This document shows, in pieces, positions 4,748-44,882 of a DNA stretch of 64,000 nucleotides. Within the stretch, counting starts at the first letter, position 1. Every line of letters begins with the position of its first letter. The translations under genes were made by a program, and so were the position numbers. The stretch is from Escherichia coli. GTDB lineage: Bacteria > Pseudomonadota > Gammaproteobacteria > Enterobacterales > Enterobacteriaceae. The stretch is from assembly GCF_024223415.1 (NCBI RefSeq), contig NZ_CP100500.1; one strand, written 5' to 3'. A model generated the notes under the pieces. It had not been told where the DNA came from, did no database searches, and saw only the letters and a program-made list of their open reading frames with translations.

Positions 4748-4750
4748 GCA

Positions 4751-5314: not shown

Positions 5315-5682
5315 AGCGCGGATTTACCTTGCTGGAAGTGATGCTCGCACTGGCGATTTTTGCGCTGGCTGCCACGGCGGTGTTACAGATTGCCAGCGGT
5401 GCGCTGAGTAATCAGCACGTTCTTGAGGAGAAAACGGTAGCAGGCTGGGTGGCTGAAAACCAGACCGCGCTGCTCTACCTGATGACCCGTGAACAACGGG
5501 CGGTCAGGCATCAGGGCGAGAGCGACATGGCAGGAAACCGCTGGTACTGGCGAACCACACCGCTGAATACAGGTAACGCGCTGCTCCAGGCGGTGGATAT
5601 TGAAGTCAGCCGTCACGAAGACTTTTCGTCGGTAATTCAGTCACGACGCGCCTGGTTTAGCGCCGTGGGAGGCCAACAGTGA
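5311..5682 (+). CDS. gspI: Minor pseudopilin GspI
   Basis: N-terminal KRGFTLLEVMLALAIFALA prepilin motif; 123 aa; overlaps neighbours by 4 nt. Confidence 0.82.
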   Translation: MKRGFTLLEVMLALAIFALAATAVLQIASGALSNQHVLEEKTVAGWVAENQTALLYLMTREQRAVRHQGESDMAGNRWYWRTTPLNTGNALLQAVDIEVSRHEDFSSVIQSRRAWFSAVGGQQ

Positions 5683-8433: not shown

Positions 8434-8434
8434 C

Positions 8435-8971
8435 ATGTTACGCGATAATTTTATTCACTATTTTCAGCAATGGCGTGAACGCCAGTTAAGCCGTGGCGAA
8501 CACTGGCTGGCACAACACCTGGCGGGGCGTTCGCCGCGTGAAAAGGGCATGTTACTGGCAGCGGTGGTGTTCCTGTTTAGCGTCGGATATTACGTCCTCA
8601 TCTGGCAGCCGTTGAGCGAACGGATAGAACAACAGGAGACGATGTTGCAGCAGCTGGTGGCAATGAACACCCGACTGAAGAACGCCGCGCCGGATATTAT
8701 TGCAGCGCGAAAATCTGCCACAACAACGCCTGCGCAGGTATCGCGGGTCATCAGCGATAGTGCTTCTGCGCACTCAGTGGTTATCAAGCGGATAGCCGAG
8801 CGCGGGGAGAATATTCAGGTCTGGATAGAACCTGTGGTGTTTAATGATCTGCTGATCTGGTTAAACGCACTGGATGAAAAATATGCGCTGCGGGTAACAC
8901 AAATTGATGTCAGTGCTGCTGAGAAGCTTGGGATGGTGAATGTGCAGCGGCTGGAGTTTGGACGGGGGTAA
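8435..8971 (+). CDS. gspM: Type II secretion protein GspM
   Basis: 178 aa, N-terminal TM (LLAAVVFLFSVGYYVLIW), last gene of operon. Confidence 0.78.
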   Translation: MLRDNFIHYFQQWRERQLSRGEHWLAQHLAGRSPREKGMLLAAVVFLFSVGYYVLIWQPLSERIEQQETMLQQLVAMNTRLKNAAPDIIAARKSATTTPAQVSRVISDSASAHSVVIKRIAERGENIQVWIEPVVFNDLLIWLNALDEKYALRVTQIDVSAAEKLGMVNVQRLEFGRG

Positions 8972-9077
8972 AGTATCAGGAGATTAATATCAATAAAATT
9001 ACTCTCGTTAACGTGGCGAGAGTAATTCACCCAGACTTTATAAGCTAATTTTTTTCGTGAAGGTTATTGTCAGATCC

Positions 9078-9110
9078 AAAAGCAAAAACCCGCCTTGTGG
9101 GCGGGTTCTT
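9078..9110. terminator. Bidirectional rho-independent terminator hairpin (cccgcc-ttgtg-ggcggg flanked by T-runs on both strands)
   Basis: GC stem 9089-9105 with ttctt downstream on + strand and tttttgctttt downstream on - strand; lies between gspM stop and the tRNA-Phe 3' fragment. Confidence 0.55.
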
Positions 9111-9119
9111 AAGAATTAG

Positions 9120-9139
9120 TGGTGCCCGGACTCGGAATC
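9120..9139 (-). repeat. 20-nt fragment identical to the 3' end of tRNA-Phe (GATTCCGAGTCCGGGCACCA); candidate island attachment-site repeat
   Basis: Reverse complement of tggtgcccggactcggaatc equals the tRNA-Phe acceptor/T-arm 3' end including CCA; upstream tRNA body is absent. Confidence 0.7.
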
Positions 9140-9326
9140 ATATCCACGATTAACATACTGTTTGTTATTGGTTTTGTTGCGATTTCTTGTAAACAGCGCC
9201 CCCACTAAAGCCCCCATAAAAAATCGCTTTGGTTTTGTGAGGGTTATCACGAAAAATCAATGTTAAGTGGAGGGCTTCGTTATGTGTGGAGTTATGACCC
9301 TGGCCCAAAATCAGTGCAGTGCTAAA

Positions 9327-17498: not shown

Positions 17499-17509
17499 TC
17501 TTCTTCCCC

Positions 17510-27614: not shown

Positions 27615-29132
27615 TTAACAACAGAAGAGGACCATCACCCCGGGATTAACCGTTAGCAGTTCGGCAAAGAGCGCATGTGCTGGCACACGTGCTCCCAGCG
27701 ACCAAAACGGAAACGCAGATACTGGTGAACCAGCACAGTTTTCTGTTTCATACCGGGCTCCTTTCTTTCGACGCCGACAAGCTGTCGGCGAGCCCCGTAC
27801 ACCTCGTACGAGCGTGACTATCGTGTAGAGGCTAAGGATCCCGGGGGATGGCTTCCGCTATCGTAGGCGATTTCATTTGATGATTCAATCTTTGCTTTGG
27901 ATAACAATTAATTGAGATGGTCGTATTTTAGTATTAGCACTGTATGTCTTAGCTATAGTGCTGCTGAAATGACCAATTCGGGAACCGTGATGGTTTCCTG
28001 GAAACTCTCTTGCTTATTTTACGATGCTGGCCGATTATCACAAAACGTTGCTTAAACGCTGATTGGATATGGTGCTTTGTGGCAGTCATTCGCTTGTCTG
28101 ACGTTGCCATGGCTTACATTTGATGTAGCCAATGTAGAAGCCGCTTGGTGAATTGTTCTATGACATGGTCTACTACTTCGTTGTGGAAAATGAAGATGCG
28201 GTACCGGGTATGTACCATTGATGGTGAGAGGCTTATCGACGAATGGACCGTACGATATTGCTTGGCTGGAAAGGTGTGTGAAGCATTGTAGATTTACATT
28301 CACAAAATCGCGAGAAAATCTACAAACAACTCTATTTCCAGAAAAATGAGTTTCCCCTTTCTGCGCCAGAAATAAAGGCGTAATCTCCCTCCTGCACTAT
28401 GTTGTCGTGGACAACTCCCTTGCTTCATGGTCTGCAAGAAGCCCCTGATTTATCAGGATGACCAGCCCTTTCTACCGGTACGACCTCCGCAATACCGGAA
28501 CGCGAAAGCGTTTGAGGCTAAGAGTACATACACATGAACGGCTCCATCGTCATCGCTTAACGGCAACAGCCTTCACCGGCTGAACGGCCTCTCTTTGCCG
28601 GAATTTTCCTGGCCCACTTATACCCTGCTGATAACCAGCGCCTTTTTACATGACGGGCTGCGGCCTGCATTGCCGAAGGCTTTGCTGCCGCGTGACCGTC
28701 ATCCTGCACCAGAGTGTTAATTTTCAGACCCTGCGCCAGACCAGGGCGTCAGTCGCTCACGCGCAGTGAGAGACTGACGCCCGCAGAAATTTCCATCTGC
28801 ACCAGTCATATCAACTGTTCCAGCCACAGGCGAGCTTCTGACGTCGCTTTTCAGCATTTATCTCAACCATTCATTCACAAAAGGAGAACATGAGCCAGTA
28901 CCGGAGGAGGACCACCAGGACGGTCCGGGGGATGACCAGCTCACGCTGGCGGCTGCTCTGAGAGCACAACCGATACCCCGCAAAACCTCAACAGCCGTCG
29001 CCCCGGCGCTCAGGTACTGCTCGCAGCCCCGACAAAAATCAGGGGCTATCGGCCTACGCGCCGGGGAAAGCTGTATCCGTTGTTTGTTGTGGTTTTGTGA
29101 AAATCAGGAGCGAGAGAAGAGGAAAACGTAAA

Positions 29133-30014
29133 ATGGGTATGCTGGAAAGAGAGATGAAAAACCTGGCGCGGCAGGCTGGCGGGTCGCACAAGACTGTCCA
29201 TGACCGTATCGCCATGGCAGGACGTTTCTGCGAACGCCTGATGGAACTGAACGTTCAGATACGCTATGTCCACCATTTAAAGGCGAAGCATATTGAGGCG
29301 TATATTCAGATGCGGCTGGCGCAGGGGATTCAGAAAAATACGCTGCATAACGAAACGGCGGCTATCCGTAAAATCCTGACGCAGGCCGGGCGCGAAAAGC
29401 TGGCGCAGAGTGAACGGATATCGAATAAATCGCTGGGGCTGGCTGGCGTATCCCGCAATGGTACGCGGAAAGCCATCACGCCGGAATATTATCAACAGAT
29501 GGCAGAGGCTGCCCGGCTGAAAGATGCGGGGCTGGCGGCGGCGCTGGAACTGACGCGGCTGATGGGGCTACGCTCTCAGGAGGCAGTACGCTGTTCCGGT
29601 TCGCTGAAAACCTGGCGCGAAGCACTGGAGAAAGGTGATACCCGGCTAACCGTGGTACTCGGTACCAAAGGTGGACGGCCCCGTGACACGATTATTCAGG
29701 ATACTGGCGCAGTTAAACAGGCGCTGGATAAGGCCATCGTGGTGGCAGAACGGCGCAACGGCAGGCTGATTGATGCGGCGAGCCTTAAACAGGCAATGAA
29801 ATACTGGCGCAACCAGACTTTGCGTATGGGGCTGACGGGCAAATACTCCCCGCACTCACTGCGCTACGCCTGGGCGCAGGACGATATCTGCCGGTATCTG
29901 GCGCAGGGGTTCAGCGAAAAAGAAGCGCTGGCGATGGTGGCAATGGACCTAGGGCATGGCGACGGGCGTGGTCGCTGGGTGAAGCAGGTGTATGCACGGA
30001 ATGATGAAGCGTGA
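29133..30014 (+). CDS. Small tyrosine recombinase-like protein (ORF track start 29097 is GTG)
   Basis: C-terminal catalytic-like residues: ...GLRSQE..., TVVLGTKGGRPRD, HSLRYAWAQ (HxLR), MDLGHGDGRGRWVKQVYAR (LGH...Y); SD-like gaggaaaa upstream of ATG 29133. Confidence 0.5.
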   Translation: MGMLEREMKNLARQAGGSHKTVHDRIAMAGRFCERLMELNVQIRYVHHLKAKHIEAYIQMRLAQGIQKNTLHNETAAIRKILTQAGREKLAQSERISNKSLGLAGVSRNGTRKAITPEYYQQMAEAARLKDAGLAAALELTRLMGLRSQEAVRCSGSLKTWREALEKGDTRLTVVLGTKGGRPRDTIIQDTGAVKQALDKAIVVAERRNGRLIDAASLKQAMKYWRNQTLRMGLTGKYSPHSLRYAWAQDDICRYLAQGFSEKEALAMVAMDLGHGDGRGRWVKQVYARNDEA

Positions 30015-30195: not shown

Positions 30196-31502
30196 TTAGC
30201 TGGCGCAGGCCGCCTGAATCTGCCTGTCATACCGATACGGCGGGATAAATTTCTGCCGACAGGCGTCGAGATAATCCGACCACCACTGCATCATCTGTGT
30301 GCGCTCGTCGAGGTGCTCCGCCTTGTGGATATACGCGGCACGAACGTGATTACGCTCCTGATGGCTCATTTGTCGCTCCACGGCGTCTTTTGACCAGCGC
30401 CCGGACTCGATCAGCGCACTACAGGCCATCGTGCGGAAACCGTGACCGCAAACATCTGCCTGTGTGTTGTAGCCCATAACCCGCAGTGCTTTGTTGATGG
30501 TGTTTTCGCTCATCGGCTTACGCGGATCGTGGTCGCCGGGAAACAGTAACTCACTACTGCCGGACAACAGTTTTAACTGTTTGAGTATTGTCACCGCCTG
30601 CGCTGACAACGGCACCAGATGCTGCATCTTCATCTTTGCGCCGCGATTTGAATAACGCACGCCCGGAATCGGCTCCCGCTCCGCCGGGATGGTCCACATT
30701 GCGCCATCCAGATTGATCTCCGTCCAGCGGGCAAAACGTAGCTCGCTGGAACGGATAAAGATCAGCAGATTAAGCTGTACCGCCAGACGGGTTAACAGCC
30801 TGCCGGAATAGCCTTCAATACGCTCCAGCATCTCCGGTATTTTCTCCAGCGGCAGGGCGGGGTAGTGGTTTTTGGGCGGCGGTGCGATAGCCCCGGTCAG
30901 ATCGTTCGCCGGATTGCTGTCGATTATCCCCTCCTGCACCGCGTAACGCATGATTGCCGTGGTGCGCTGCTGAATCCGTGCAGCGGTCTCCAGCGTACCT
31001 TTTCGTTCCGCCACCCGCAGCGGGATCAGCAGATCGGCAGTTTTCAAATCAGAGACCGGAATTTGCCGATCAGTGGAAAAACATGCAGCTCCAGCGAGCG
31101 CAGGACTTTGGCGGCATGGGCTTCATTCCAGCGGATATTGCCCGCTACCCACTTACGGGCGATATCTTCAAAGGTGTTGCCGCTTTTACGTGCAAACTTC
31201 TCCTGCTGTTTTTTCACGCCGGGATCGCTGCCTGCGCTCAATACCGAGCGGGCATCCTCGCGCAGCTTGCGGGCATTTGCCAGAGAAACGGCCGGGTAAG
31301 CACCAAACGCCAGCTTCTTCTCTTTACCGCCGAAGCGGTACTTGAGGTGCCAGAGTTTAGATCCGTTGGGCTTTATCAGCAGGTACAGACCCTGCGCATC
31401 GCTGAGTTTCCAGGATTTATCAAGCGGCTTTGCATTACGGATGGCGGTATCGGTGAGGGACATAGTGGGGCTCCATAGTTTATCGAACCGACGGGCCCCC
31501 AA
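30196..31502 (-). pseudogene. P4-type tyrosine integrase split by a frameshift near 31045-31060
   Basis: N-terminal ORF (31044..31502) ...LKYRFGGKEKKLAFGAYPAVSLANARKLR...VFPLIGK; C-terminal ORF (30196..31047) ...ADLLIPLRVAERKGTLETAARIQQR...HGFRTMACSALIESG...; the two pieces are in different frames. Confidence 0.8.
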
Positions 31503-31625
31503 TTAAGCCCCCAAAAACTATGGATGTCAAAAAATCTGGCAGTACCTGTTGGTACTCCAGACTCTTTGTAACTAACTGATTTTTTGATGTTTCAGGACTC
31601 ATAGAGACGCCATGAAACTAAATAG

Positions 31626-31647
31626 TGGTGCCGGACTCGGAATCGAA
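31626..31647 (-). repeat. 22-nt fragment matching the tRNA-Phe 3' end with one base deleted; second copy of the attachment-site repeat
   Basis: Reverse complement TTCGATTCCGAGTCCGG-CACCA; same orientation as the copy at 9120..9139; ~125 nt beyond the integrase start. Confidence 0.65.
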
Positions 31648-31757
31648 TATTTCATTTATCATATTGATATTTGTGTGATTTATTTGGTTTGATTAAAAAT
31701 GTACCCTCATTTGTACCCGTAGTCCCTTTTGATATTGAAAGGGAATCACACTCGGGA

Positions 31758-32600
31758 TCAGGCTGAGAGCACAGAAAGAAAGTGCTTGGCTATTATATCG
31801 TTAATTCTGTCAATCAGTTCCAGCCTTTTGAAAGTGATGTGTGCAGATCCCTTCTTAAAATATTTAATGATGAACATCTCGTCTTCATAGCGCTCTTTAC
31901 CCTGAACGGACTGGATGTGACCATCCAGACGAATAGTGATGTTTTCCCGGTTGTCGGGGATGGGGGTGCCGCTGAACAGATGTAGCATTCTTTCCAGGTC
32001 GGCGAGTCGGTCAGTCTCTTGTCCGGTGATAAGATGAAATCCCCACCGGTCCCATCTCACCAGATTGTTGATAATGATTTTACTTCCAAATTTACAGGGA
32101 GAGTTGGTTTTATAATTCCAGCTCAGTTCCCTGAAGACGTTAATCACTCCCCGCTTAAACACCTCATCCTTGTTCTGGTGCAGTTGTTCAAATGTGCTCA
32201 GAATGTTCGCTTCGCTGATTTCCGGAAAATTATCGTACTCCAGTGACCGGTACCATGTATCACGGGCCTGTGCATCCATTAATGACAGCATCCCGGAACG
32301 TTGCATCAGGTCACGCCAGATTTCACGGTCAAGGTTGCGGGTAATGGCTTTCATTATGGTTTCCGGTTTCTCAGTCAGCCAGCAACCACAGCGAAAATCC
32401 TGTTTCATGGCCCAGTCCGGGGCGGTTTTATCTCCAATACTTTCTGTCATTGCTGAGATTTCTGTCAGTTGCCGGATAAGTGTGTCGATTTGCATCAGTG
32501 TGGTCTTTCGTACAGCCAGAATGTGTCCGATTGAGGTGGAACAGATAACGTCCGTATGCCCGTTGACCACTTCAGGACGGGAGATTGTGATACCTGACAT
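31758..32600 (-). CDS. Hypothetical protein, distal gene of the CP4-like module
   Basis: 280-aa ORF co-directional with the CbtA/CbeA cluster. Confidence 0.5.
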   Translation of the reverse strand: MSGITISRPEVVNGHTDVICSTSIGHILAVRKTTLMQIDTLIRQLTEISAMTESIGDKTAPDWAMKQDFRCGCWLTEKPETIMKAITRNLDREIWRDLMQRSGMLSLMDAQARDTWYRSLEYDNFPEISEANILSTFEQLHQNKDEVFKRGVINVFRELSWNYKTNSPCKFGSKIIINNLVRWDRWGFHLITGQETDRLADLERMLHLFSGTPIPDNRENITIRLDGHIQSVQGKERYEDEMFIIKYFKKGSAHITFKRLELIDRINDIIAKHFLSVLSA

Positions 32601-32684
32601 AATCGTTTTTCCTTTTTGCCGATAAATGAAAACGTCAGCCCTGTTCAGGCTGGCGTCAGTGGAGTGAAGTATAGTGAGTGAGAC

Positions 32685-33038
32685 TCACGCGCTCAGGTGA
32701 ATGAGTTGCAGGTGACGCAGGGTACGGACATCTTCCCTGGCCTGTTCGATACAGGGCAACAATGCTGCCGAATCCGTTTTATCCTCATTGTTGTCAAAGA
32801 TAATCCCCGATTCGCAGTCGGATATTGTCCTGCAGCCACGCAATGTTGTAAACGGTGGTGGAGTGCAGGTTGACTGCTGGTCAGGGTCGTCCACCACGCG
32901 GAGTGAATAACCGTATTCAGCGACCTTGTTAATCAGTTCAGTGAGCTCAACACCATCAATGTCAACGACAATTCGCCCTATATTCAGTGCCTGTACGTTA
33001 ACGCTGTCTGCTTCCAATGTCAGGGCCAGTTTCATCAT
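32685..33038 (-). CDS. YeeW-like small protein
   Basis: 117 aa, starts MMKLALTLEADSVNVQALN..., directly follows and overlaps the CbtA-like toxin gene. Confidence 0.55.
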   Translation of the reverse strand: MMKLALTLEADSVNVQALNIGRIVVDIDGVELTELINKVAEYGYSLRVVDDPDQQSTCTPPPFTTLRGCRTISDCESGIIFDNNEDKTDSAALLPCIEQAREDVRTLRHLQLIHLSA

Positions 33039-33409
33039 TTCGCCTCCGGATACTTACCCAGGGTAATGTTATTTACCGTTCTGTAATTGTCGCGGGTCAT
33101 CAGGCCGGTCGCCCTGCGAGCCCGGAGGATATCGATGCTGTTTATTAACTGAGAGCGGGTACAGGTGCTGAATCCCGGCTGGTCGGTACGCACCAGCGCG
33201 TATTTTTCCACGAGAAAGTTCACCGCATCACACAGTGAAATGCCAGCCTCAATATGCTGCTCAATCACACGTTCATCGGCAAACGGTGTGTCATGCAGTG
33301 TGAGGCCGTAATGCTGGTCCAGCAGCCGGGTCAGCAGTATCTGCCAGATTTCAAGCGGAGACGGGCGTGAACTGGCCGCTTGCTTGGGTAATACAGGTAA
33401 TGTTTTCAT
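33035..33409 (-). CDS. cbtA: CbtA (YeeV)-family cytoskeleton-targeting toxin
   Basis: MKTLPVLP.QAASSRPSP.EIWQILL.RLLDQHYGLTL.DTPFADERVIEQHIEAGISLCDAVNFLVEKYALVRTDQPGF recalled as YeeV/CbtA. Confidence 0.85.
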   Translation of the reverse strand: MKTLPVLPKQAASSRPSPLEIWQILLTRLLDQHYGLTLHDTPFADERVIEQHIEAGISLCDAVNFLVEKYALVRTDQPGFSTCTRSQLINSIDILRARRATGLMTRDNYRTVNNITLGKYPEAK

Positions 33410-33454
33410 TTTAAGTTCTCAGTAATGGGGGAGATAAAGGTGAGATATTCGGGA

Positions 33455-33817
33455 TTATGCTGTTGTTGCGGGAACTGCTGGTGTCGGATAAACAGCCATA
33501 TAAACGTAGCCACAACTGCCGAGGGTGTCGGCTTCGCAGGTCAGCCCTTTTGCATACAGCGTGACGGTATGCTGATGACGGGGACTGAGTTCACCGCTGG
33601 TGAGCATTAATTCCAGTTGTTTCATCAGCAGCGGAAAGGCCTGGTCCGGATGGTATGCATCTGCGTCGCTGAAGCGGCCTCTGATACCGGCGCGGTCGGC
33701 AAGGTAATGCAACCGGTTACCCTCCTGCACCAGACAGGCCCCGAAACAGGGCGTCACGGTGCAGGGTAGTCCCCACCAGGGGCGGTCGTGATTGTCGTCG
33801 GGGAGTGTGTCTGACAC
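33455..33817 (-). CDS. cbeA: CbeA (YeeU)-family antitoxin
   Basis: MSDTLP...DNHDRPWWGLPCTVTPCFGA.LVQEGNRLHYLADRAGIRG... recalled as YeeU/CbeA; precedes toxin gene. Confidence 0.85.
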   Translation of the reverse strand: MSDTLPDDNHDRPWWGLPCTVTPCFGACLVQEGNRLHYLADRAGIRGRFSDADAYHPDQAFPLLMKQLELMLTSGELSPRHQHTVTLYAKGLTCEADTLGSCGYVYMAVYPTPAVPATTA

Positions 33818-33892
33818 GATAAAGTCCTCACAGAAAATCGGTTAAGAATGGTCCGGTAGTGGCGATAATTCTGCTCATCAGAATGCCCTGAC

Positions 33893-34114
33893 TCAGTTCA
33901 GGGTGACACTCATCAGGCGGACATACGGGCCAAAACTGTCCTTACGGCGTTCTGCAAATACAGCCAGCACACCGGGAATATCCTGCACTTCACGACCGGT
34001 ATACGCCTCAGCACTGCCGTGCCAGCGGTATTTACCGGTACAGAACGGAAAAAGACGGGATGTCGGATGTTGTTGGTGAATACGCATGGCTTCACCACGG
34101 GTGATAATTTTCAT
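33893..34114 (-). CDS. YeeT-like (DUF987) protein
   Basis: 73-aa ORF between RadC-like gene and antitoxin, as in CP4-type elements. Confidence 0.55.
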   Translation of the reverse strand: MKIITRGEAMRIHQQHPTSRLFPFCTGKYRWHGSAEAYTGREVQDIPGVLAVFAERRKDSFGPYVRLMSVTLN

Positions 34115-34176
34115 AATGGGATACCTCTGAAGACAGAAGATAAAAGTGAAAACAGGTGTGATGTGGTTGTGACGGG

Positions 34177-34668
34177 TTAAAGCAGACCATGTTCGGCAAA
34201 GGAGAAAACCTGGCTGCCACCGACTATCAGATGGTCCGGCACCCGGATATCCACCAGGCCCAGTGCCTGTACCAGACGTTCCGTGATAAGGCGGTCTGCC
34301 TTGCTGGGTGTGACTTCACCGGACGGGTGATTGTGCGCCAGCACCACGGCAGCGGCATTGTGGTACAGGGCGCGTTTAATCACTTCCCGGGGATGGACTT
34401 CCGTGCGGTTGATGGTGCCGGTGAAGAGGGTTTCACCGGCAATCAGCTGATTCTGGTTATTCAGATACAGCACCCGGAATTCTTCACGCTCCAGTCCCGC
34501 CATGTTCAGAATCAGCCATTCCCGTGCCGCACGGGTGGAGGTGAAGGCCACGCCGGGTTCATGAAGATGGCGGTCCAGGGCTTTCAGGGCCCGCTGAATG
34601 AGGCTGCGCTCGCCGGGCGTCATCGCTCCGGGCAGAAAGGAAAGCTGCTGCATTGTCCCTGCCTCCAT
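34177..34668 (-). CDS. RadC-like JAB-domain protein (YeeS/YfjY family)
   Basis: HNHPSG..P.PS.AD JAMM motif (VLAHNHPSGEVTPSKADRLITERL). Confidence 0.85.
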   Translation of the reverse strand: MEAGTMQQLSFLPGAMTPGERSLIQRALKALDRHLHEPGVAFTSTRAAREWLILNMAGLEREEFRVLYLNNQNQLIAGETLFTGTINRTEVHPREVIKRALYHNAAAVVLAHNHPSGEVTPSKADRLITERLVQALGLVDIRVPDHLIVGGSQVFSFAEHGLL

Positions 34669-35178
34669 TCAGTCGATAATGCGCATAATGGCGCTGCATT
34701 CCGGATGCTGCAGGGCGTAATCCCGCAGCCGGTAATAATGGACCGTCATGGCATAACACTCCGTACGACAGGCATGATGACTGTACGTCATCAGACAGGC
34801 AGCAATGCCGGCGGCTTCCGGGCTCATTTCAGCGCGGTTACCGTTCATGGCATTGAACAGTACCCATGTTTCGTCATCATCGTCATCCGGTTCGGGTGCC
34901 ATAAATGCCCCGCCATTGTTCAGGGTGTACAGATTCCAGATACCACCGCAGTAGTCTTCGCACAGACGGTCCATCCAGCCGAAGACACGGGGCTCCAGGG
35001 CCACCCACTGTGGAATGAGGCCAAAGTGCTGCGGCCAGAAGCTGATGCGCTGTTCATCAGGGACTATGGTGGCAACCAGTTGAGACTGGTTATTCCCTGA
35101 TGCAACGGTTACGGAAACAGAAGGTGTGGTGGAATTATGCGAAGAGGTTGTCATGAGATTATTCCTTATAAAAAGCAA
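34669..35178 (-). CDS. Antirestriction protein (ArdB/KlcA/YfjX family)
   Basis: 169 aa; sequence resembles the YfjX/YafX antirestriction family of CP4 elements; acidic DDDDDE stretch. Confidence 0.65.
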   Translation of the reverse strand: MLFIRNNLMTTSSHNSTTPSVSVTVASGNNQSQLVATIVPDEQRISFWPQHFGLIPQWVALEPRVFGWMDRLCEDYCGGIWNLYTLNNGGAFMAPEPDDDDDETWVLFNAMNGNRAEMSPEAAGIAACLMTYSHHACRTECYAMTVHYYRLRDYALQHPECSAIMRIID

Positions 35179-35245
35179 ATGAATGGAAGAATGCCTGGGG
35201 ACTGGTACAGACGTGAGTCAGGGCTGCACTTTCAGGGAAACAGCA

Positions 35246-36064
35246 TCAGCGCAGGCTCTCCAGCAGCGTTTCTGCCATCACCCACAATGCGCGGTTGAGC
35301 CTAATGTCCGTGTCGATGCTGTGAATGGCACGGGTGTGGATACGTTTTCCTTTAGCGCTGCGACCGGAAATCCCGCCTTTCAGCATATTCTCCTGGATGG
35401 TCTGATATGCACTCCACAGGTCCTTACCGTAATCCTCCCTGCGTCGTGGCGTCAGAATGTCGGCGGTGGTGACCGGCTGATGTTCGTCACCATAACGGTA
35501 AGTCAGTGCCGCCTGTGCCAGCGCCTGACGTGCCGGTGGCGGCAGGACCAGAGACTGCATGGCATCACGCTTTTCCTCAATCCGGTCAAAAACGCCCACT
35601 ACCTCGTAAGCCCCTTCAATGACTCTGTCCACCACATTTCCCCGGTGGGGCACACGGACTTCCCCCAGAGACTGACCGCAGACGCAGCCGTTCTGGCAGA
35701 CGAATCTGAAGTAACCCGGCAGCATCTGGTAGCTGGAGGTACCGTCATGGGAGTTGAGCAGAATAATTTCAGGGACATGTTGTCCGGTTATCTCCCCGGC
35801 CCGCCGCAGACGCAGCATGTGTCTGGTGTATCCCCGGCGGCCCGGGTCGCGCACGCGGGTCTGGCAGGCGAAGAATGGCTGAAAACCTTCCCGCTGCAGG
35901 CTTTCCAGTACGGTGATGGTGGGAATGTACGCATAGCGTTCACTGCGGGAGGTATGCCGATCTTCCCCAAAAATACTGGGTACATAGTGCATCAGTTCTT
36001 CATGTGTCAGCGGACGGTCACGGCGTATCTGGTTTACATGACCAAAACGACTTGCTAATCGCAT
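35246..36064 (-). CDS. DUF932-family protein (YfjQ/YafZ-like)
   Basis: 272 aa; position and sequence pattern typical of CP4-type islands. Confidence 0.6.
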   Translation of the reverse strand: MRLASRFGHVNQIRRDRPLTHEELMHYVPSIFGEDRHTSRSERYAYIPTITVLESLQREGFQPFFACQTRVRDPGRRGYTRHMLRLRRAGEITGQHVPEIILLNSHDGTSSYQMLPGYFRFVCQNGCVCGQSLGEVRVPHRGNVVDRVIEGAYEVVGVFDRIEEKRDAMQSLVLPPPARQALAQAALTYRYGDEHQPVTTADILTPRRREDYGKDLWSAYQTIQENMLKGGISGRSAKGKRIHTRAIHSIDTDIRLNRALWVMAETLLESLR

Positions 36065-36393
36065 GATTTGCTCCTTATGAATGAGTTAGCGGTATAAATG
36101 AAAAAGCCGCGTCTCCCGGAGAAGACGCGGCCTGACCGATGAAATGAATGACGTTTATTGTCTGAGAAGCCCTTCACTGGCGAGCCACGCATTAAGTTGT
36201 TTGCCGGCATCGTATTCAAAATTCCAGCACCGCCAGCGCAACTGACATTCAGCATTGTGGATAACCAGCCGGAAATGCGTTCCCTGGTCATTTTCGATAA
36301 ACACATTGCGATAAGCTGTTGTGATGGCAACCGCCTGCTCTCGAGAGAAAGGGCCTTCGGGCAATAAAACAGGGTGACAGTCCGACATACCGG

Positions 36394-37071
36394 CTATTTT
36401 CCGATAAATTCAACGCTGGCACCGGTGGCATTACCGTCAGCACCAACCGTGACGGTCACTTTGTCGTACGCACGGTCTTCAGGATTGAACACTTCAAACT
36501 CAACCTTATTGCCTTTTACTTCGTAAGAGCCAAAATCAGCGGTTTCTGTTGTTTCCTCGTCATATTCCCGGGCGTATGCCTGCCGGGCAGCCTGCAGGAC
36601 GGAATCTTTATTAATGGCGGGTGTCTGTTTCGGGGAAAAATCGGCAAGTGATGTGACAAATTTCGGACAGACCTTCAGCATATCACCGCGGGTGAATTCC
36701 ATTCGTACACCAAATGCCTGTAAAACGGACACATCACGCTCTGCTATGGAGTGAACGGCTTTTTTGACCATTTCCGGCGCCTGTCCGACTTCCACCTCAA
36801 CAGCCCTGAATCCTGTCTGCTGATTACACATTTGTGATGTGGGGATCAGGTTACCGTTAATATTGATACGGCTGCCCAGGAGCGTCTGTACACCATTCGG
36901 GCATCCCTGCATCAGGCCGGTAATACCAATCGTGCCATTTTTCAGCATTACCAGCGCCTGACCATCTTCCGTCATGGTCTGACACCAGCCGTTTTTGACA
37001 GCCCAGTTGCCGGCGGAGGCGGAGAATGATGCCACAGTGAACAGCAGGGGAAAAAGAATTCTGGTATTCAT
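36394..37071 (-). CDS. Hypothetical exported protein (signal peptide)
   Basis: N-terminal [20 protein letters not shown] signal-like segment; 225 aa. Confidence 0.5.
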
Positions 37072-37189
37072 GACTGACCTCTGAAATTAAAGAGCGTGTT
37101 ATTGATAATGACAGACGGTATACGGCAGTGGTTACCGTAATCCGTTGTCGTGTAAAGGTATACGGTTGCCACGGGGGACTCCGGGGCGC

Positions 37190-38074
37190 TCAGAACAGGT
37201 GATCCCACAGTGTGACCAGCAGGTGGATAATGCGGTCCCGGGTTTTGCGCAGAAGCTGTAACATCCAGGCCGGAAAACTGAAACGGGCAACGGCGTCGTC
37301 AAAACTTTTCCCGATGGTTTCACCAAAAGTCTGTTGTGCGTGTTTCCGGGCCTGTTCAGAGCGGTTTTCCCCCCGGATATGTGAATAAACCGCACTGGTT
37401 GCCTGTGGTGGCAGTGCGTGGATCATCAGCGACACAAACGCCGGAAGGTTCCAGCCGACAGGTGCGGCAACGGAGAGTACCGGAAATGATGAAGGGAACA
37501 GGGTTGCCACCCGGGCTGTCACCGTCGCCAGTGAGAGCGCCTGCTGACGGGACGGGCATTTTTCTGTGTCGTTCCATTCTTCAGCAGGAAACACGCGATC
37601 GGCATGGCTGAGAACAAACAGAAAACGCGAGGGATCTGCACCTTCATTCAGTAAAAACTGATGCATGGCAATATCAGCAGCATACGCACGTTCATCAGCC
37701 CGCAGGATCCAGATAATCAGATCCAGTTCGGGCAGTAACTGACTGTAAAGTGCCCGGTATTCCTGATCATGCTGTGGTGTTTCGCCAGTGCCGGGCAGAT
37801 CGACCAGCGTCATTCTTCGTTCACCGGGCTGAAAGGTAAGACGATGAGCCTGACGGGTGCAGCCGTTCAGCGGATGCGTGGCGCAGACACGGGACTGAAA
37901 AATGGCATTGCACAGGCTGCTTTTTCCGGCACCGGATTTACCCATAATGCCAATAACGGGTTCGTACTGAATGACGCTGCGAAGATGTTCAAGGATTTTC
38001 TGGCGAATTTCTTCAGGAAGAAAGGTCAGATGTGACTTTACGTGTGCGGAGAGGGAAGAATGGCTGAATGACAT
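37190..38074 (-). CDS. GTPase of the YeeP/YkfA/YfjP family (50S ribosome-binding GTPase-like)
   Basis: G1 motif GIMGKSGAGKSSL, DLPG switch region; first gene of the CP4-like module. Confidence 0.8.
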   Translation of the reverse strand: MSFSHSSLSAHVKSHLTFLPEEIRQKILEHLRSVIQYEPVIGIMGKSGAGKSSLCNAIFQSRVCATHPLNGCTRQAHRLTFQPGERRMTLVDLPGTGETPQHDQEYRALYSQLLPELDLIIWILRADERAYAADIAMHQFLLNEGADPSRFLFVLSHADRVFPAEEWNDTEKCPSRQQALSLATVTARVATLFPSSFPVLSVAAPVGWNLPAFVSLMIHALPPQATSAVYSHIRGENRSEQARKHAQQTFGETIGKSFDDAVARFSFPAWMLQLLRKTRDRIIHLLVTLWDHLF

Positions 38075-38174
38075 ACCGTTATCCTGTTGATTTCACTGAA
38101 CCGGATCACATTAATCCGGCCTATCAGTCAGGTAATATGGACGTGAAAATTTTTCCATTGACGGGAAGAAGAGT

Positions 38175-39323
38175 ATGGCTAAAAACAAAGGTATCTGTCG
38201 GAATAAAAAATGCAGCAATCCTGTTTCAGAATTTGATGAGGCAAATGCCCTGAGGTTATGTGATGATCATTATCAGTTATGGAAACGAAATAAAGAGAAC
38301 CGTCGGGTCAGGAATATTTGTCGTATAATCAGTAAATATGACAAAAGTCTGGACCGGGAGATATTTGACAGAGTAATAGATGCTGCAAGAAATCAAACGG
38401 GAAAGAGAATTGTTGAGGACGCAAAAATATTACATCAATTGCGCAATTCAAAGCAAGTAAGAAAAAGTCTTCATAATGGAGTACTCCGGTCACGGGAATG
38501 GCTCAATACACAGGAGTTACTGAGAAGAAAAAATATATCTGTTACAGGTGACTCATTTAAATCTTACATAAAGGATATTGTCAGATTATATTGCTATAAG
38601 TTTCTCTACAGCAGAGAATATCTTAATGAAAACGCATACAAAAAACAATATCAGAGAGTTATTAACCCCAGAGAATTTAATGTTCCGATACTTCAACTTG
38701 AAGTTGCATGGATCAATAATAATTGCCGTTCAAGTGATTCAAGCTCTGATATTATCATCCTTCCCAGGATGATAAGAAGAATGGTTGTATTTAATGATAC
38801 GAAGATAAATAAACAATTAGAGGAAATGTTGGGGGGGATAGCACGAAAAAAAGTCGCAGTAAGGAATAAAGGCGGTCTCTATACCAGAATAAAAAAAGAA
38901 AATGATTTTCGTTCTATGGATAGATTTATGGTGGAAATCGAAAATATCATAAGACCTGAAATATTTCCGACATCAATTTACCCGCCTTTTTCACTTTCAT
39001 TTATCGAGAGAGAATTGCCACTACTGAATCTGGCGCACTCACAGTACAAAAGAGCAATAAGTAAAAAAGTGGCGAATTCAATTTTTTATACTTTGCGAAA
39101 AACTCACGTGGCATTATGGCTGCATCTTGAAATGTTTGCTCTTGTGGCATTCATCAAACTGTATACAGGAAAAGGGTTTGAATTCATGAAAAACATGTGT
39201 GTATTTATAGATTATGATAAAGGGATAATAAAATCCACGCATGAAGAACTGCTGAGTGAAATTAAGTGTAACATTCAGTTGAATTTAAAGGTGAATCCTG
39301 ATAATTTTCCTGAATTAATATAA
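38175..39323 (+). CDS. Hypothetical lysine-rich protein in very AT-rich DNA; N-terminal Cys/His cluster
   Basis: 382-aa ORF, N-terminus MAKNKGICRNKKCSNP...LCDDHYQLW; SD-like ggaag upstream; codon usage clearly foreign. Confidence 0.5.
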   Translation: MAKNKGICRNKKCSNPVSEFDEANALRLCDDHYQLWKRNKENRRVRNICRIISKYDKSLDREIFDRVIDAARNQTGKRIVEDAKILHQLRNSKQVRKSLHNGVLRSREWLNTQELLRRKNISVTGDSFKSYIKDIVRLYCYKFLYSREYLNENAYKKQYQRVINPREFNVPILQLEVAWINNNCRSSDSSSDIIILPRMIRRMVVFNDTKINKQLEEMLGGIARKKVAVRNKGGLYTRIKKENDFRSMDRFMVEIENIIRPEIFPTSIYPPFSLSFIERELPLLNLAHSQYKRAISKKVANSIFYTLRKTHVALWLHLEMFALVAFIKLYTGKGFEFMKNMCVFIDYDKGIIKSTHEELLSEIKCNIQLNLKVNPDNFPELI

Positions 39324-39904
39324 ATATACAATTCATGCTTTAGTAAAAATATATTGTTGTATGATGTTCAGGATGATGGTTTTAAATGGTGTTTATGATG
39401 TGAAAATATTAAATTTATATTACATTTTAATTATCGACAAAAAACACATAAAGAAATCTAAAGGGAATGAGCGTCAAATGAGCTGATATAGCGCCAGTTT
39501 GGTATGGTCATGTGATTTGATGATTAAAGCTTACGGATAATAACACTCCTCTGTGAGCCATATAAATGAGCATGCCATAATCGTCAGTTCAGAGATAAAA
39601 CTGACTGAATGATCTTATGTTATAGTAAGCAGTGTTTACCGGATACGATGACTTATCTCTCTCACATCATATGGATTCACTTTCATGGGGTAAAGCGATG
39701 GGACTACAGACGCTGATTATGATGGTTTGCTGTAAAGTTAGCACAAGTTTTTGCTGTACAGAATACGGAGTAAGAAAAATAATTCCAGAGTAAATCTGCT
39801 CTGCTTTTGAACAGAAAAGATTCATGCTTACCGTGAAAAACTGAAACCAACATTCAGTCTGCATGGATGTCTTAAGATGTTGAGAATGTCGGATATGGTA
39901 TTAT

Positions 39905-40060
39905 ATACACCTTTTCCATTAGGTCCTTTTATGTTTTCATTAAGTCGTTTTGTATGTATTCCTCCAGTGATTCATTAGTGCCTGTTTACGCATTTACACA
40001 CTTTTCCCATTAATCTCCTTTAAATGTGTTTCATTACGCATTGCTGTACACATTTTTGAA
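39905..40060. repeat. Two imperfect direct copies of a ~55-60-bp AT-rich unit
   Basis: acaccttttccattaggtccttttatgttttcattaagtcgttttgtatgtattcc vs acacacttttcccattaatctcctttaaatgtgtttcattacgcattgctgtacacattttt. Confidence 0.4.
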
Positions 40061-40981
40061 CTGATACACATCCAAGTTAGTAAACCTGTCAGTTCTGATT
40101 TTACGTTAACTAAATCAGTTTAATGCTGCTGTAAAACAATCCTTCCTGTTTAAGCAATCAATCTGCTATTCGATTTTACTGATGTGACGTTTAACCTTTC
40201 CTGAGCTTTGGTTGTTTGTGGTTTTTGGTTTGTGTTTCGACGTTAAGCTGAGAAAAGTATCTTTACGCTAAATCAACCCGAACTTTCCTGAGGTGATCTG
40301 ACGTTCTTTTCGATGTGCTTACGACGATTCTGTTAAACGACTTTCTGGATGTTTTGATAACAATCAGATTGAGGCATTAACGATTCCTGACGTTTTGCTT
40401 TTTCATGTAAGGTCATTGTTTTCGTCATGATGTGGTTTTTCTTCTTGCATTGCGAAAGTGTGATGATTGGTTTTGGTTTTTTGATTCAGATGAGATTTAC
40501 GTTATCGATGGTTAATCGTTTTTATGGTGAGTAGTGAAACGTAACATTTTCGGGATGAGAAAATCGATTCTGATGGTGATGGGGATGATCGTGTTACGGC
40601 GTTATCTGTAAACAGGTTTTAAACGTGTCATTCGCATTCGTGATTGAGTTGTGTGATTAAGCTGTAGGTTTTGGCGTTGTTGTTGATTTGCATTGCCAGG
40701 AAGCGTTCTGGTTGCGTTTCTGGTGTTTTGTTCGAATGTTCTGTGGATCCTTTTCCCTTCAGGCTTTTCTCGTCGTCCATGTCGTTTTTAAATCCATTCA
40801 TGCTGTTGTTGCGTGTTTTGCTGCTGTGTGCAGGATTATCTTTTCGTTCCGGGATGGTTTGTTCCGTTTCAATCACTCTTAATCAGAGAGTTGTAGCATT
40901 GCTTAATGACATGATGCCGTAAAGTTTTACCGCGGTGATTAATGATGTGAAGTCAATCCAAATCAACGGAGATCTCTCATC

Positions 40982-41713
40982 ATGAATCAACCAATACACA
41001 ATGCTTACTGGTTATCCCGTTTTGACAGCCTTCTCGACAGTGCCCTGTCGCAGCACCGTGCCGTCTCGTTAATCCGGGTGGATTTACGTTTCCCTGAGTA
41101 TATGCCTGTCACCATCATGGATCCCGATCCGGATTCAGCGGTGATTTCTCGTTTTTTCGAATCCCTGAAAGCCAAAATCCAGGCTTACCAGCGGAAAAAA
41201 CGACGTGCCAACAAGCGTGTGCGTGCAACCACTCTGCGTTATTTCTGGTGTCGGGAGTTTGGCAAGGAAAAAGGCAGGAAACATTATCACGTGATATTGC
41301 TGCTCAACAAAGATACCTGGTGCTCGCCAGGGGATTTCAGCGAACCATCTTCGCTGGCGACGATGATCCTGGAGGCATGGTGCAGCGCCCTGCATCTTGA
41401 GGCCTGGCAAGGCGATGGCCTGGTCCATTTTTCCAGGTGGACGCCTTCCCGTAAACCAGCATCGTCTGATGCTCGCCCTTCTTCCGATGACACGCCTTTG
41501 TCGGGTGGATGTTCTGATACCAGGAAGGCTTCAGAAAAAAAGCCGGGTGAAGCCGCTGTTCTCTGGATCAAGCGTGGTGATGTGGAAGCGCTGCAGAAAG
41601 CCCGGAACAGAGCCAGTTATCTCGTGAAATATGAGACGAAGCAGCATGACGGTTCCGGGCAACGTAATTATGGTTGCAGTCGTGGGCCGGGGCGTCTGCT
41701 GGATGGCAGGTGA
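40982..41713 (+). CDS. YagK/YfjJ-family protein (inovirus Gp2-like)
   Basis: 243 aa; ...SLIRVDLRFPEY...KHYHVILLLNKD... pattern recalled from CP4-element yagK/yfjJ genes. Confidence 0.55.
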   Translation: MNQPIHNAYWLSRFDSLLDSALSQHRAVSLIRVDLRFPEYMPVTIMDPDPDSAVISRFFESLKAKIQAYQRKKRRANKRVRATTLRYFWCREFGKEKGRKHYHVILLLNKDTWCSPGDFSEPSSLATMILEAWCSALHLEAWQGDGLVHFSRWTPSRKPASSDARPSSDDTPLSGGCSDTRKASEKKPGEAAVLWIKRGDVEALQKARNRASYLVKYETKQHDGSGQRNYGCSRGPGRLLDGR

Positions 41714-42069
41714 GCCCTGTAAAACGACATCCGGTGCCTGAGCTTATGCTACAGGACGTTGGCTGACGCCCTTAGCTCGTTTTCTGAAAAAGTCGTCCTG
41801 AAGTCATGCAACGGTATTTTTCTCTGCTTTCGCTCCTGGAAACACTCCGTCGGTAAAACCTTACTGTCCTGCTTAATGATGTGAACCGAAGTCAACGGAG
41901 ATCATTCATTCTGAACCTGCATCCGGTGTTCTGTCCCTTGTCGGTTACCTGATCTTCCCGTTCTGCCGCGGTTTTTCACTTATTCCATCAACCCCATACG
42001 CAAGCCATAACACGTCAGCGCATCCACGGGCAGGACGCGTTGTGGGCTGCGTATAACGGAACATATCTT

Positions 42070-42642
42070 ATGAATGCTATCCCTTATTTCGACTATAGCA
42101 TGGCGCCCTTCTGGCCATCTTATCAGAACAAAATCATCGGCGTTCTCAACCGTGTGTTGCGCGAGCAGTCCTGCTCCCGAATACGGCGGATCCTGCTTCG
42201 TCTGCCGGGGGAACATGGCAACATCTTCAGCGACAGAAAAACCTGGTTCGGTATGGCCTTTATCGAAACCGTCAGTGCGCTGATGAATGCAACACCCGGA
42301 CGTGACCTCTGCTGGCTCCTGACTCGTCATCCTGAAAAACCGGAATACCACGTGGTGCTGTGCGTCAGACAGGAGTATTTCGACGGCCCTGAACTGGATC
42401 GGCTGATTCTGGATGCCTGGAGCAACGTACTGGGCTTCGCGTCACCGGGTGAAGCGGCACCGTACCAGAAACAGATAACCCGGGATGTGGTGCTGGACAG
42501 TTGTTCACCGGACTGCGAAGAGAGACTCAAAGAGCTGATATGGGCGTTCAGTGATTTCGCCCGCGATCATCGTGGTGTGCGCGATCCGGAAGCCCGTTAC
42601 CTCGCCGGTAATCCCTGGTATCCCGTAGCAGGCCAGCTCTGA
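42070..42642 (+). CDS. Second YagK/YfjJ-family paralog (ORF track start 42040 is TTG; ATG 42070 preferred)
   Basis: Starts MNAIPYFDY... parallel to MNQPIHNAY... of the first paralog; ...RILLRLPGEHG...EYHVVLCVRQEY... Confidence 0.5.
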   Translation: MNAIPYFDYSMAPFWPSYQNKIIGVLNRVLREQSCSRIRRILLRLPGEHGNIFSDRKTWFGMAFIETVSALMNATPGRDLCWLLTRHPEKPEYHVVLCVRQEYFDGPELDRLILDAWSNVLGFASPGEAAPYQKQITRDVVLDSCSPDCEERLKELIWAFSDFARDHRGVRDPEARYLAGNPWYPVAGQL

Positions 42643-42710
42643 AAGCTCAGCTCAGCAGATTCACCCGCATTTGCCCAACATTCATAAATCTCACAGAGGA
42701 CATTCTGACC

Positions 42711-42947
42711 ATGTTGACCTCAATGACAGGTCACGACAGCGTATTGCTGCGTGCCGACGATCCCCTGATCGACATGAACTACATCACCAGCTTCACTGGT
42801 ATGACCGACAAATGGTTTTACAAGCTGATCAGTGAAGGCCATTTCCCTAAACCCATCAAACTGGGGCGCAGCAGCCGCTGGTACAAAAGTGAAGTGGAGC
42901 AGTGGATGCAGCAACGAATCGAGGCATCACGAGGGGCAGCAGCATGA
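42711..42947 (+). CDS. alpA: AlpA-family prophage regulatory protein (HTH)
   Basis: 78 aa; ...LIDMNYITSFTGMTDKWFYKLISEGHFPKPIKLGRSSRWYKSEVEQWM typical AlpA. Confidence 0.8.
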   Translation: MLTSMTGHDSVLLRADDPLIDMNYITSFTGMTDKWFYKLISEGHFPKPIKLGRSSRWYKSEVEQWMQQRIEASRGAAA

Positions 42948-43060
42948 AACGTGTTGTAATGCCGGTACGCTGGCAATGTGCAAAATACCAGCGTTGGTAT
43001 TGTGGAAGCCGGCCCTGTCCCTGGTGCTGGCGACACTCCCGCTCATCTTTCTGCTGACAC
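42944..43060 (+). CDS. Candidate 38-codon Cys/Trp-rich small ORF translationally coupled to alpA
   Basis: ATG overlaps alpA stop (ATGA); translation MKRVVMPVRWQCAKYQRWYCGSRPCPWCWRHSRSSFC; below ORF-track size cutoff. Confidence 0.3.
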
Positions 43061-44882
43061 CCTCTGGTCAGCCAGCGGACTATCGTCCTTTCCTGACCGA
43101 TTCGTCATTCCATTCTTATTGATTATAACTGGCATTACACCGGTGCCGGCGTGCTTTTCTGTAGATCTGCACCGGTTTAACAAAATTCGACAAGGTTTGA
43201 AGGAGTATTCTGTGCAAATAAGCGAGGCCCTAATTTCAGAACCGGGGAAAATCCAGCGTTTTGTTCAGCAGGCGGTGGACCACTAGCCGCGTCTGCTGGC
43301 AGTCCACTTCACGCTTGATTCGGCTGAAGGGAATATTGACGAGGGGCAGATTCATGCATTCTGTACTGCCTTTTACCGACAGGTGCACGAGCGTATTACT
43401 GAACGTAATCACACGGCCAGCCCATCCTCGCCGGTGGTATTACGCTGGTTGCGGGAACAACATGGAGGAGCAACAATACGATGCCTGTTGCTGTTCAGCC
43501 AGGAGCTTTTCTGCCATCCGCGAGCCAGTGTGACAGTTGATGAAGAATGTTCACAACTGGTGGATTTACTACAACAGACTTGGCAGGTGATAAGCGCTGG
43601 CGGACAATGCCGGGTGGAAAAGCGTTTTCAGGTCGTCCGGGGTGATACATCTGGCCAGTATGTTGCGTTAAAAACAGTCGCATTGTCTCTGGGGTTACCG
43701 GTTGTGATCGCCATTACCCATCGTCCGGTACAGCGCTGTACATTGATTACAGCTCAGTGAATCAGCGCAGTTGTGCAGTCAACGAGGTTTTCTGGCTTTT
43801 CGTCGGTCATTCAGCATCATTAAACGGGTCTCTGCCTCTTTCTGTTCCTGTGGTGTCACTTCCCCGCACGGCTGACCGTTCAGGTTGTAACGGGCGCCAC
43901 CTGCTATTAACGCACGGTAATAGCGCGGAGACTGCACATAAGACGCCACTGCTGCATGTAATGTACCAGCGCCAAACGCCAGTTCTCGGATGGCGATATC
44001 CTGTATCAGGTCGTCAGGTATCCCCACTTTAAGTGGTTTTGTTTTTTTCCCGGTTGAATGACTCAGGCCAGAGTTCCACAAGACGAATAATGCGCTTACG
44101 GTTTTTGCTCTGGCGTTTTGTCATGTCGCCACGGTGTTTTATCAGCAGGTTTCTGTTTATCGTTCAACTGTGGTATCTGGTCACCGGCCTTCATTTTGTA
44201 TGCTGTGTCCGTTTTATTCTGCAGCGGCGTTGCCGGTGATTTACTGAAAATACCCTGCGGTTTACGGTTAATGGTCAGAGTTACCATCAATTTTGTTACC
44301 TCGCGCTGTCAATGGAAGTAGTACCTCATCCGATATCTGAAAATGTTTTCCGGTGGATGTTACAGCGAATTTCATGTAAGACATGTTGTTGTCGGTATTG
44401 TTCAGTACTGTGCGTTGTGAGCGTATTCGTTATCAGACAGAGGGGCAGGGAACAAACGTCAGAGGTTAAGGATATCCGGGAACAAATGGCGTAAACGGAC
44501 ATCTCAGTGCCTGAGAAACAGTACAGGTCAGGCCATCATGGCCTGCAAACAGAGCCCTGGCGACCCCGTGGCCGAAAACGAAACAATAACCCGCGCGCAG
44601 TGCGAGGAATCCGGATGTGAAGCAATCAGCAGGTAATATTAATGGCAGGACCAGCAGGTTCTTTAAACAAACGAACATGCTGTAATTGATATTTTGCTTA
44701 TTGTATTTTCTTTTTAGTTATTAAATTAATTTATTTACGAAAAATTTTCTGCAGATACAGGATGGGAATTCAGGGTGTCATCACGCCTTATGATGACACC
44801 CTTCCCCTGGTTGTGGAAAACCGAAGGATATATCAGGTTCAGCAACAAAATCAGTGAGCTGAAAGATACCAGTCCCCCAGCT

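Follow-up and report, generated by a model that had tools for sequence, protein, structure and literature searches.

A CP4-type yee module as the probable attR-proximal backbone of a genomic island stacked against a defence island at pheV of Escherichia coli

What kind of mobile element carries the gene block at positions 31758-38074 of a 64-kb stretch of Escherichia coli DNA (the window, contig NZ_CP100500.1), and how did that element come to lie against a second one at a single tRNA gene? The block consists of eleven collinear minus-strand open reading frames (ORFs). The initial annotation had described it as a CP4-type cryptic prophage module, known biology, that starts immediately beyond a second tRNA-Phe repeat and stands in tandem with a defence island. 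On the evidence presented here it is highly probable that the block is the attR-proximal backbone of a P4-integrase-type genomic island at pheV, a "yee module" of the type seen in the K-12 elements CP4-44, CP4-57 and CP4-6. The CP4 part of the earlier description therefore stands, while the prophage part does not, since no phage structural genes are present. "Cryptic prophage" is a historical K-12 label that goes back to the P4-type integrase, and it should be read here as the backbone of a genomic island.

The block and its K-12 relatives

When the module proteins were compared with the three K-12 elements (tblastn), CP4-family homologues were found for nine of the eleven. In CP4-44, from the RadC-like gene to the toxin gene, the order is that of the window. 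The RadC-like protein (98% identical to YeeS), the DUF987 protein (100% over 73 amino acids, YeeT), CbeA (91%, YeeU), CbtA (96% over 124 amino acids, YeeV) and the YeeW-like protein (60%) all have counterparts there, and yeeS-yeeT-cbeA-cbtA-yeeW agree with the window module in order, orientation and placement at the distal end. In full, CP4-44 reads yeeP-flu-yeeR-yeeS-yeeT-cbeA-cbtA-yeeW, so that flu (Ag43) and yeeR replace the exported protein, DUF905, DUF932 and antirestriction genes of the window. Its yeeP is a pseudogene, it has no DUF4942 gene, and it occupies a different chromosomal site from the window island.

CP4-57 and CP4-6 have the same overall gene order as the window, at lower identity (32-82%). 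Common to all three is the series GTPase, DUF932, (DUF905), antirestriction, RadC, DUF987, antitoxin and toxin, which is represented by yfjP-yfjQ...yfjX/lfgA-yfjY/lfgB-ypjJ-yfjZ-ypjF in CP4-57 and by ykfA-yafZ...ykfF-yafX-ykfG-ykfH-yafW-ykfI in CP4-6. The DUF932 protein is 74-75% identical to YfjQ and YafZ, the antirestriction protein 62-64% identical to its counterparts in both elements, and the DUF905 protein 54% identical to YkfF of CP4-6; the GTPase is 32-36% identical to YfjP (CP4-57), YkfA (CP4-6) and YeeP (CP4-44). AlpA and YfjJ/YagK backbone genes are also common to CP4-57, CP4-6 and the window island. The two K-12 elements differ from the window in carrying extra genes between DUF932 and antirestriction (yfjR-yfjW; yafY and ykfB), in being integrated at ssrA and thrW instead of pheV, and in lacking DUF4942 and the 225-amino-acid exported protein. 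The latter two proteins are those for which tblastn found no homologue in any of the three K-12 elements; both are regular members of the block in the islands of Ch1, GF60 and O78 strain 3.

Could the block nevertheless have begun as a genuine P4-like satellite prophage and be what is left of it after loss of the phage genes? P4-type integrases occur at such sites, AlpA and YagK/YfjJ ("inovirus Gp2 family") genes lie nearby, several module proteins have PHROG families, and the paper on the pheV islands (GI-pheV) speculates on a bacteriophage origin (PMC11537424). The PHROG matches of the module, however, fall only into the categories unknown function, moron and DNA repair. Genes for virion (capsid, tail), packaging (terminase), lysis, or P4 capsid redirection and replication (sid/psu/delta/alpha type) are absent from the window and from annotated relatives, and no phage structural genes are listed for the whole-island relatives Ch1, GF60 and O78 strain 3. 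The cargo of these relatives is sugar transport and adhesins, namely sugar phosphotransferase systems (PTS), transketolase and a YadA-like adhesin, together with a TonB receptor and insertion sequence (IS) elements. We regard a satellite origin as very improbable.

Better placed, if still unlikely, is the idea that a conjugatively mobilisable island has its leading or establishment region here, expressed early after transfer to evade restriction and then to enforce retention. Sets of antirestriction, DUF932, RadC and toxin-antitoxin genes occur in the leading regions of plasmids and of integrative and conjugative elements. In the window, an antirestriction gene (PF03230), a DUF932 gene, a RadC-like gene and a toxin-antitoxin pair are likewise clustered at the attR end without phage structural genes, and the DUF932 protein has a weak NCBIfam match to a "phage/plasmid-like protein". 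However, neither relaxase, oriT nor type IV secretion genes turned up in the window or among annotated relatives, and this explanation largely overlaps with that of a genomic island backbone and does not replace it.

The tandem junction at pheV

The module does start directly beyond a tRNA-Phe 3'-end repeat, as had been claimed. This repeat, TTCGATTCCGAGTCCGG-CACCA, is 22 nt long (31647-31626, minus strand) and lies 110 bp beyond the DUF4942 stop codon; a distal repeat, TATGATTCCGAGTCCGGGCACCA (21/23), is found at 9142-9120 on the same strand. Since none of 100 shuffles gave either repeat, a chance origin is excluded, and since ARAGORN found no intact tRNA gene in the 64-kb window, both are fragments and not genes. 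The repeat beside the module is identical to the imperfect 23-bp attR that is the commonest published form in GI-pheV, including a 1-nt deletion found in many strains (PMC11537424). GI-pheV occupies the same locus as the window island, with pheV upstream of yghD/gsp, and likewise carries the module at its attR end. Decay was considered as the source of the 1-nt deletion and ruled out, as the deletion is also present in published attRs and in GF60, Ch1 and O78 strain 3; most likely it travels with the attP of the island.

Comparison with other genomes separates the two elements at this repeat. Ch1 shares this module right end with its attR, and the sequence immediately after attR there is CTAATTCTTAAGAACCCGCCCACAAGGCGGGTTTTTGCTT, the terminator that natively lies downstream of pheV. 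Within the window, that terminator comes after the repeat at 9120, and what adjoins the attR at 31626 is CTATTTAGTTTCATGG..., which is the arm on the integrase side of the neighbouring element. Positions 1-9200 of the window correspond to the gspD-M/yghD type II secretion genes and have 100% identity with the complete genomes NCTC9112, SCU-316, O78 strain 3 and KV7. SCU-316 has, after yqgA and an intact pheV, this frameshifted integrase, then the defence island and gsp; its homology to the window breaks off precisely at 31647. The tandem junction itself is present in 8 of 5426 complete E. coli genomes. Because the defence island stands alone in SCU-316, at an intact pheV and with the homology running out at the repeat, and because eight genomes carry the tandem, serial integration at the same tRNA, which the initial annotation had suggested, is supported; the Ch1 junction adds to this. 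The array would therefore stem from two site-specific integration events, separate from each other, that both used the 3' end of this tRNA.

The order of these integrations, with the defence island first, is our inference. The reverse order, in which the defence island came second and entered the distal 22-nt repeat, or a single move of both as one composite island, appears improbable. In their favour, either order yields the same junction sequence, and eight genomes share the tandem. However, all near-identical copies of the defence island have the same integrase frameshift, the solitary SCU-316 copy included, so that repeated integration of the defence island is unlikely. Moreover, the islands upstream of the junction differ among the tandem genomes (91-95% identity on that side, and O78 strain 3 has an additional EAL gene), whereas 20 complete genomes carry the defence island at 99.9-100% identity. 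An internal att repeat also parts the two elements. The frameshift shows a defence-island integrase that is predicted to be dead, so that the two elements are to be treated as separate units. In the scenario that we favour, the defence island with its dead integrase would have been resident at pheV first, and different yee-module islands would later have entered the regenerated tRNA, each between pheV and the older defence island. The module island, with its cargo of sugar-uptake genes resembling those of the island AGI-3, would then sit between pheV, which is outside the window, and the defence island.

Several points weigh against this account. Had the defence island entered the other island's distal repeat, the final structure would be the same, as it would after precise excision of the upstream island in SCU-316. 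The left end of the module island (integrase, attL and pheV) lies outside the window, and the only P4-type integrase within it is the frameshifted one of the neighbouring defence island. An in-frame fusion of two module genes, DUF5983::DUF957, reveals ongoing decay in part of the block. Finally, only a minority of the conserved module proteins have a demonstrated role, though they are present in more than 90% of E. coli genomes.

Between the module and attR, about 55 bp from the attR core, lies a direct repeat, GGGTACA-N5-GGGTACA (31718-31700, minus strand), which is kept in four islands. These may be candidate arm-type sites for the integrase.

Module proteins and their predicted roles

The ten minus-strand genes named in the initial annotation were all found (Table 1) and assigned to families, save the exported protein; the DUF905 gene between the exported protein and DUF932 had been missed. 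In all, ten of the eleven ORFs have a family match in Pfam (E 1e-14 to 1e-65). The antirestriction ORF (TTG start) and the RadC ORF (ATG start) are listed in the table with the starts of the ORF list. To judge from gene lengths in other islands, the true starts are probably 35154 (8 codons downstream) and 34653 (5 codons downstream), respectively.

Table 1. Features of the module, its attachment-site surroundings and the adjoining island genes (positions within the window).
Feature	Coordinates	Strand	Family match or remark
Distal tRNA-Phe repeat	9120-9142	-	attR of defence island; then native pheV-downstream terminator and yghD/gsp core genes
Frameshifted P4-type integrase, two ORFs, 152 + 283 aa (amino acids)	30196-31502	-	Arm-DNA-bind_3, Phage_int_M and Phage_integrase over two frames
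tRNA-Phe repeat	31626-31647	-	attR of module-bearing island and left junction of defence island
Island right end (attP-derived arm)	31648-31757	-	Shared by four islands, located at pheV or pheU
DUF4942 protein, 280 aa, last gene of island	31758-32600	-	Pfam 3e-65
DUF5983::DUF957 in-frame fusion, 117 aa, "YeeW-like"	32685-33038	-	Pfam DUF5983_N 4e-29
CbtA (YeeV) toxin, 124 aa, full length	33035-33409	-	PF06755, Pfam 1.8e-57, residues 1-112 of 112
CbeA (YeeU) type IV antitoxin, 120 aa, GTG start	33455-33817	-	PF06154, Pfam CbeA_antitoxin 5.3e-52
DUF987 protein, YeeT	33893-34114	-	Pfam 2e-39
RadC-like JAB/MPN protein, YeeS/YfjY(LfgB)-like	34177-34668	-	Pfam RadC 1.5e-44
Antirestriction protein, YfjX(LfgA)/YafX-like	34669-35178	-	PF03230, Pfam 2.6e-37, residues 1-92 of 92
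DUF932 protein, 272 aa, YfjQ/YafZ-like	35246-36064	-	Pfam 2e-51
Terminator-like hairpin and U-run, between DUF905 and DUF932	36104-36133	-	13-bp stem
DUF905 protein, 77 aa, YkfF-like	36155-36388	-	Pfam DUF905 6e-25
Exported protein, 225 aa	36394-37071	-	No family match
YfjP/YkfA/YeeP-family GTPase, 294 aa, first of block	37190-38074	-	Pfam MMR_HSR1 2e-14, Dynamin_N 7e-10
YagK/YfjJ-like ("inovirus Gp2 family") gene	40982-41713	+	Pfam YagK_YfjJ_C 4e-37
AlpA-family regulator, 78 aa	42711-42947	+	Pfam Phage_AlpA 2e-10

The toxin-antitoxin pair is the best-understood part of the module. The cbeA gene lies directly upstream of cbtA on the same strand, with a 45-bp gap, and by Pfam match and identity to the K-12 proteins the two belong to the antitoxin and toxin families, respectively. 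Experiments have established CbtA/CbeA, YkfI/YafW and YpjF/YfjZ as type IV toxin-antitoxin systems; the K-12 toxin inhibits FtsZ/MreB, the antitoxin counteracts it without binding the toxin, and the YkfI and YpjF toxins interact with FtsZ (PMC5371832). Toxins of the CbtA family act on FtsZ to block cell division, and antitoxins of the CbeA family neutralise them. CbtA of the window would thus be expected to hit FtsZ and MreB, proteins of cell division and cell shape, and the pair would most plausibly penalise loss of the island. The antirestriction protein (PHROG "anti-restriction protein", 1.4e-63) is expected from its PF03230 family to shield incoming DNA from restriction, and could in this way help incoming island DNA to establish itself. 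The module may accordingly be seen as equipment for maintenance and establishment of the element, as distinct from phage machinery; for this particular copy we infer both roles, retention through toxin-antitoxin addiction and establishment through antirestriction, by analogy.

Other module proteins have recognisable features. In the RadC-like protein, classed as a JAB/MPN metalloprotease, the JAMM motif HxHx7Sx2D is intact (HNHPSGEVTPSKAD at residue 112), and the related YfjY/LfgB reportedly has protease activity (PMC10846083). The GTPase retains its P-loop (GKSGAGKS) and DLPG (DxxG) motifs. Its C-terminal 100 residues have a weak PADLOC match to LeoBC (E 8e-8), which together with the Dynamin_N match hints at a possible relation to the bacterial dynamin-like Leo proteins. 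Since PADLOC returned nothing else for the module proteins, the module is not a catalogued defence system. The PHROG matches of the DUF4942 protein, which is 82% identical to its copy in O78 strain 3, include a DNA-methyltransferase family (1e-13).

A classical Sec-type N-terminal signal sequence and four invariant cysteines mark the exported protein, which has no match in Pfam, NCBIfam, PHROGs or PADLOC. Its AlphaFold2 (AF2) model (mean predicted local distance difference test score, pLDDT, 80) consists of an N-terminal beta domain and a C-terminal domain with a helix and four strands, for which fold comparison gave generic matches only. Modules of Escherichia, Klebsiella, Citrobacter, Enterobacter and Lelliottia retain this protein, which is restricted to the Enterobacteriaceae.

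The gene downstream of cbtA had been called YeeW-like, which is correct for its DUF5983/YeeW-like N-terminus; its C-terminus is DUF957, so that the gene is a fusion. By tblastn, 33035-32730 corresponds to residues 1-93 of DUF5983, and 32819-32697 to residues 22-62 of DUF957 (90% identical). The start of the fusion ORF overlaps the cbtA stop by 4 nt. In other islands a separate DUF957 gene follows DUF5983, and the fusion keeps the last ~41 residues of it. The fusion would therefore be explained by internal loss of a few hundred bp, as compared with islands that have both genes.

The spacing of the module genes is tight, and a GC-rich, terminator-like hairpin between DUF905 and DUF932 (36133-36104; free energy -25.4 kcal/mol, z -6.1) was matched in folding by none of 200 shuffles and is kept with at most one change in the islands of Ch1, GF60 and O78 strain 3. 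Because of this conserved hairpin, two transcription units are predicted, one for the GTPase, exported protein and DUF905 and a second from DUF932 through DUF4942. This agrees with the single CP4-57 operon yfjXY-ypjJ-yfjZ-ypjF (PMC10846083). A sigma-70 scan was uninformative, with sites no more numerous than in shuffles.

Further searches added no genes to the block. Long ORFs on the plus strand opposite the module (303, 291, 151, 91 and 88 amino acids) have no Pfam match and were treated as shadow ORFs. Rfam in E-value mode over 31000-44000 returned only a chance small nucleolar RNA (E 0.93) and no known small RNA such as IsrC, and tblastn found no extra copy of any module gene in the window.

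The adjoining islands and the wider distribution of the module

The module-bearing island starts at 31648 and leaves the window at its far end inside an IS66 copy. The YagK/YfjJ-like gene, which is also present in Ch1, GF60 and O78 strain 3, and the AlpA-family gene show, by their family matches, that the CP4-type backbone reaches beyond 31758-38074. A 100-amino-acid ORF with a ProQ/FinO domain (43779-44081, minus strand; 3e-17) has a GF60 counterpart annotated as frameshifted, and is probably a pseudogene fragment of the island backbone.

Between the GTPase and YfjJ-like genes lies a variable slot (38075-40981) with 36% GC, as against 53% in the module. It contains an ORF of 382 amino acids (38175-39323, plus strand) whose N-terminus bears a zinc-ribbon-like Cys/Cys/Cys/His motif. 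This ORF falls ~25 residues short at its C-terminal end of 407-amino-acid homologues and is followed by ~1.6 kb of small ORFs only; it has no Pfam or PADLOC match, and its AF2 model is poor (pLDDT 56). Other islands hold different hypothetical genes in this slot, and the equivalent position in K-12 CP4-57 holds abpAB and rnlAB. It is possible that the slot is a hotspot for cargo or defence genes.

From 38200 to 63000 the window is 98-99% identical to AGI-3-type islands of BEN2908, avian pathogenic E. coli (APEC) E19035 and GF60. AGI-3 is referred to as the selC-associated island of APEC strain BEN2908 (Chouikha et al. 2006, as cited in PMC3349570). The AGI-3-like cargo comprises PTS systems, a transketolase pair, a YadA-like adhesin, UgpB and a phytase-like esterase, and is found at three tRNA sites: pheV (window), pheU (GF60) and selC (E19035). 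The window copy, unlike those at selC or pheU, lies at pheV with a tRNA-Phe-type right end. Since the same cargo occurs at different tRNA sites, cargo has moved, or modules have been exchanged, between islands of a common backbone.

The neighbouring element (9143-31625) is a defence island, as it had been called. PADLOC finds Shango SngABC (SngA 5e-97, SngB 4e-187, SngC 1e-273), AbiEi (7e-46) and AbiEii (3e-193), and PDC-S06 (3e-242). Its frameshifted integrase is annotated as such in SCU-316 and O78 strain 3, two genomes with 99.9-100% matches to the window. Adjoining this integrase, inside the island, is a second, unrelated tyrosine-recombinase-like gene (29097-30014, plus strand; Pfam Integrase_1 3e-58 and Phage_int_SAM_2). 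Directly downstream of sngABC, and on its strand, are ORFs of 743 and 1583 amino acids (10555-17534, minus strand) whose stops and starts overlap. PADLOC matches neither of them, and both are labelled "hypothetical" in relatives; they may be Shango partners that have escaped recognition, or a separate system.

That the module is known biology was also correct, since the block, its attachment site and the stacking of islands at pheV have all been described. The block has been named the "yee module", tied to CP4-44 and found to be recurrent in GI-pheV with high recombinational diversity, and a second element downstream of attR was already reported in strain 12009 (PMC11537424, 2024 PLoS Genetics). 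The element behind attR is an anti-phage defence island in the window and the enterocyte-effacement locus (LEE) in the published case. The cargo differs as well: aerobactin, pap, nan or flu modules in GI-pheV of uropathogenic E. coli, AGI-3-like genes (PTS, transketolase, YadA-like adhesin) in the window. With megablast, 31600-38200 has matches in 5035 of 5426 complete E. coli genomes, at a median of three places per genome; at least 80% of this query is covered in 1754 genomes, and the identity of the best match is 95.3%. Annotations of Ch1, GF60, O78 strain 3 and 042 show the gene order of the block as well.

The module is thus among the commonest accessory modules of E. coli and already known, and this copy matters little alone. 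For annotation, its value is the exact boundary at 31647/31648 between the right end of a sugar-uptake island and the left end of a defence island. A more speculative and rather doubtful proposal is that the backbone forms a dedicated establishment-and-retention cassette, in which the GTPase, exported protein, DUF932 and DUF4942 would take part in anti-defence or island transfer. If this were true, the variable slot between the GTPase and the YfjJ-like gene would be a hotspot in which new defence genes may be found.

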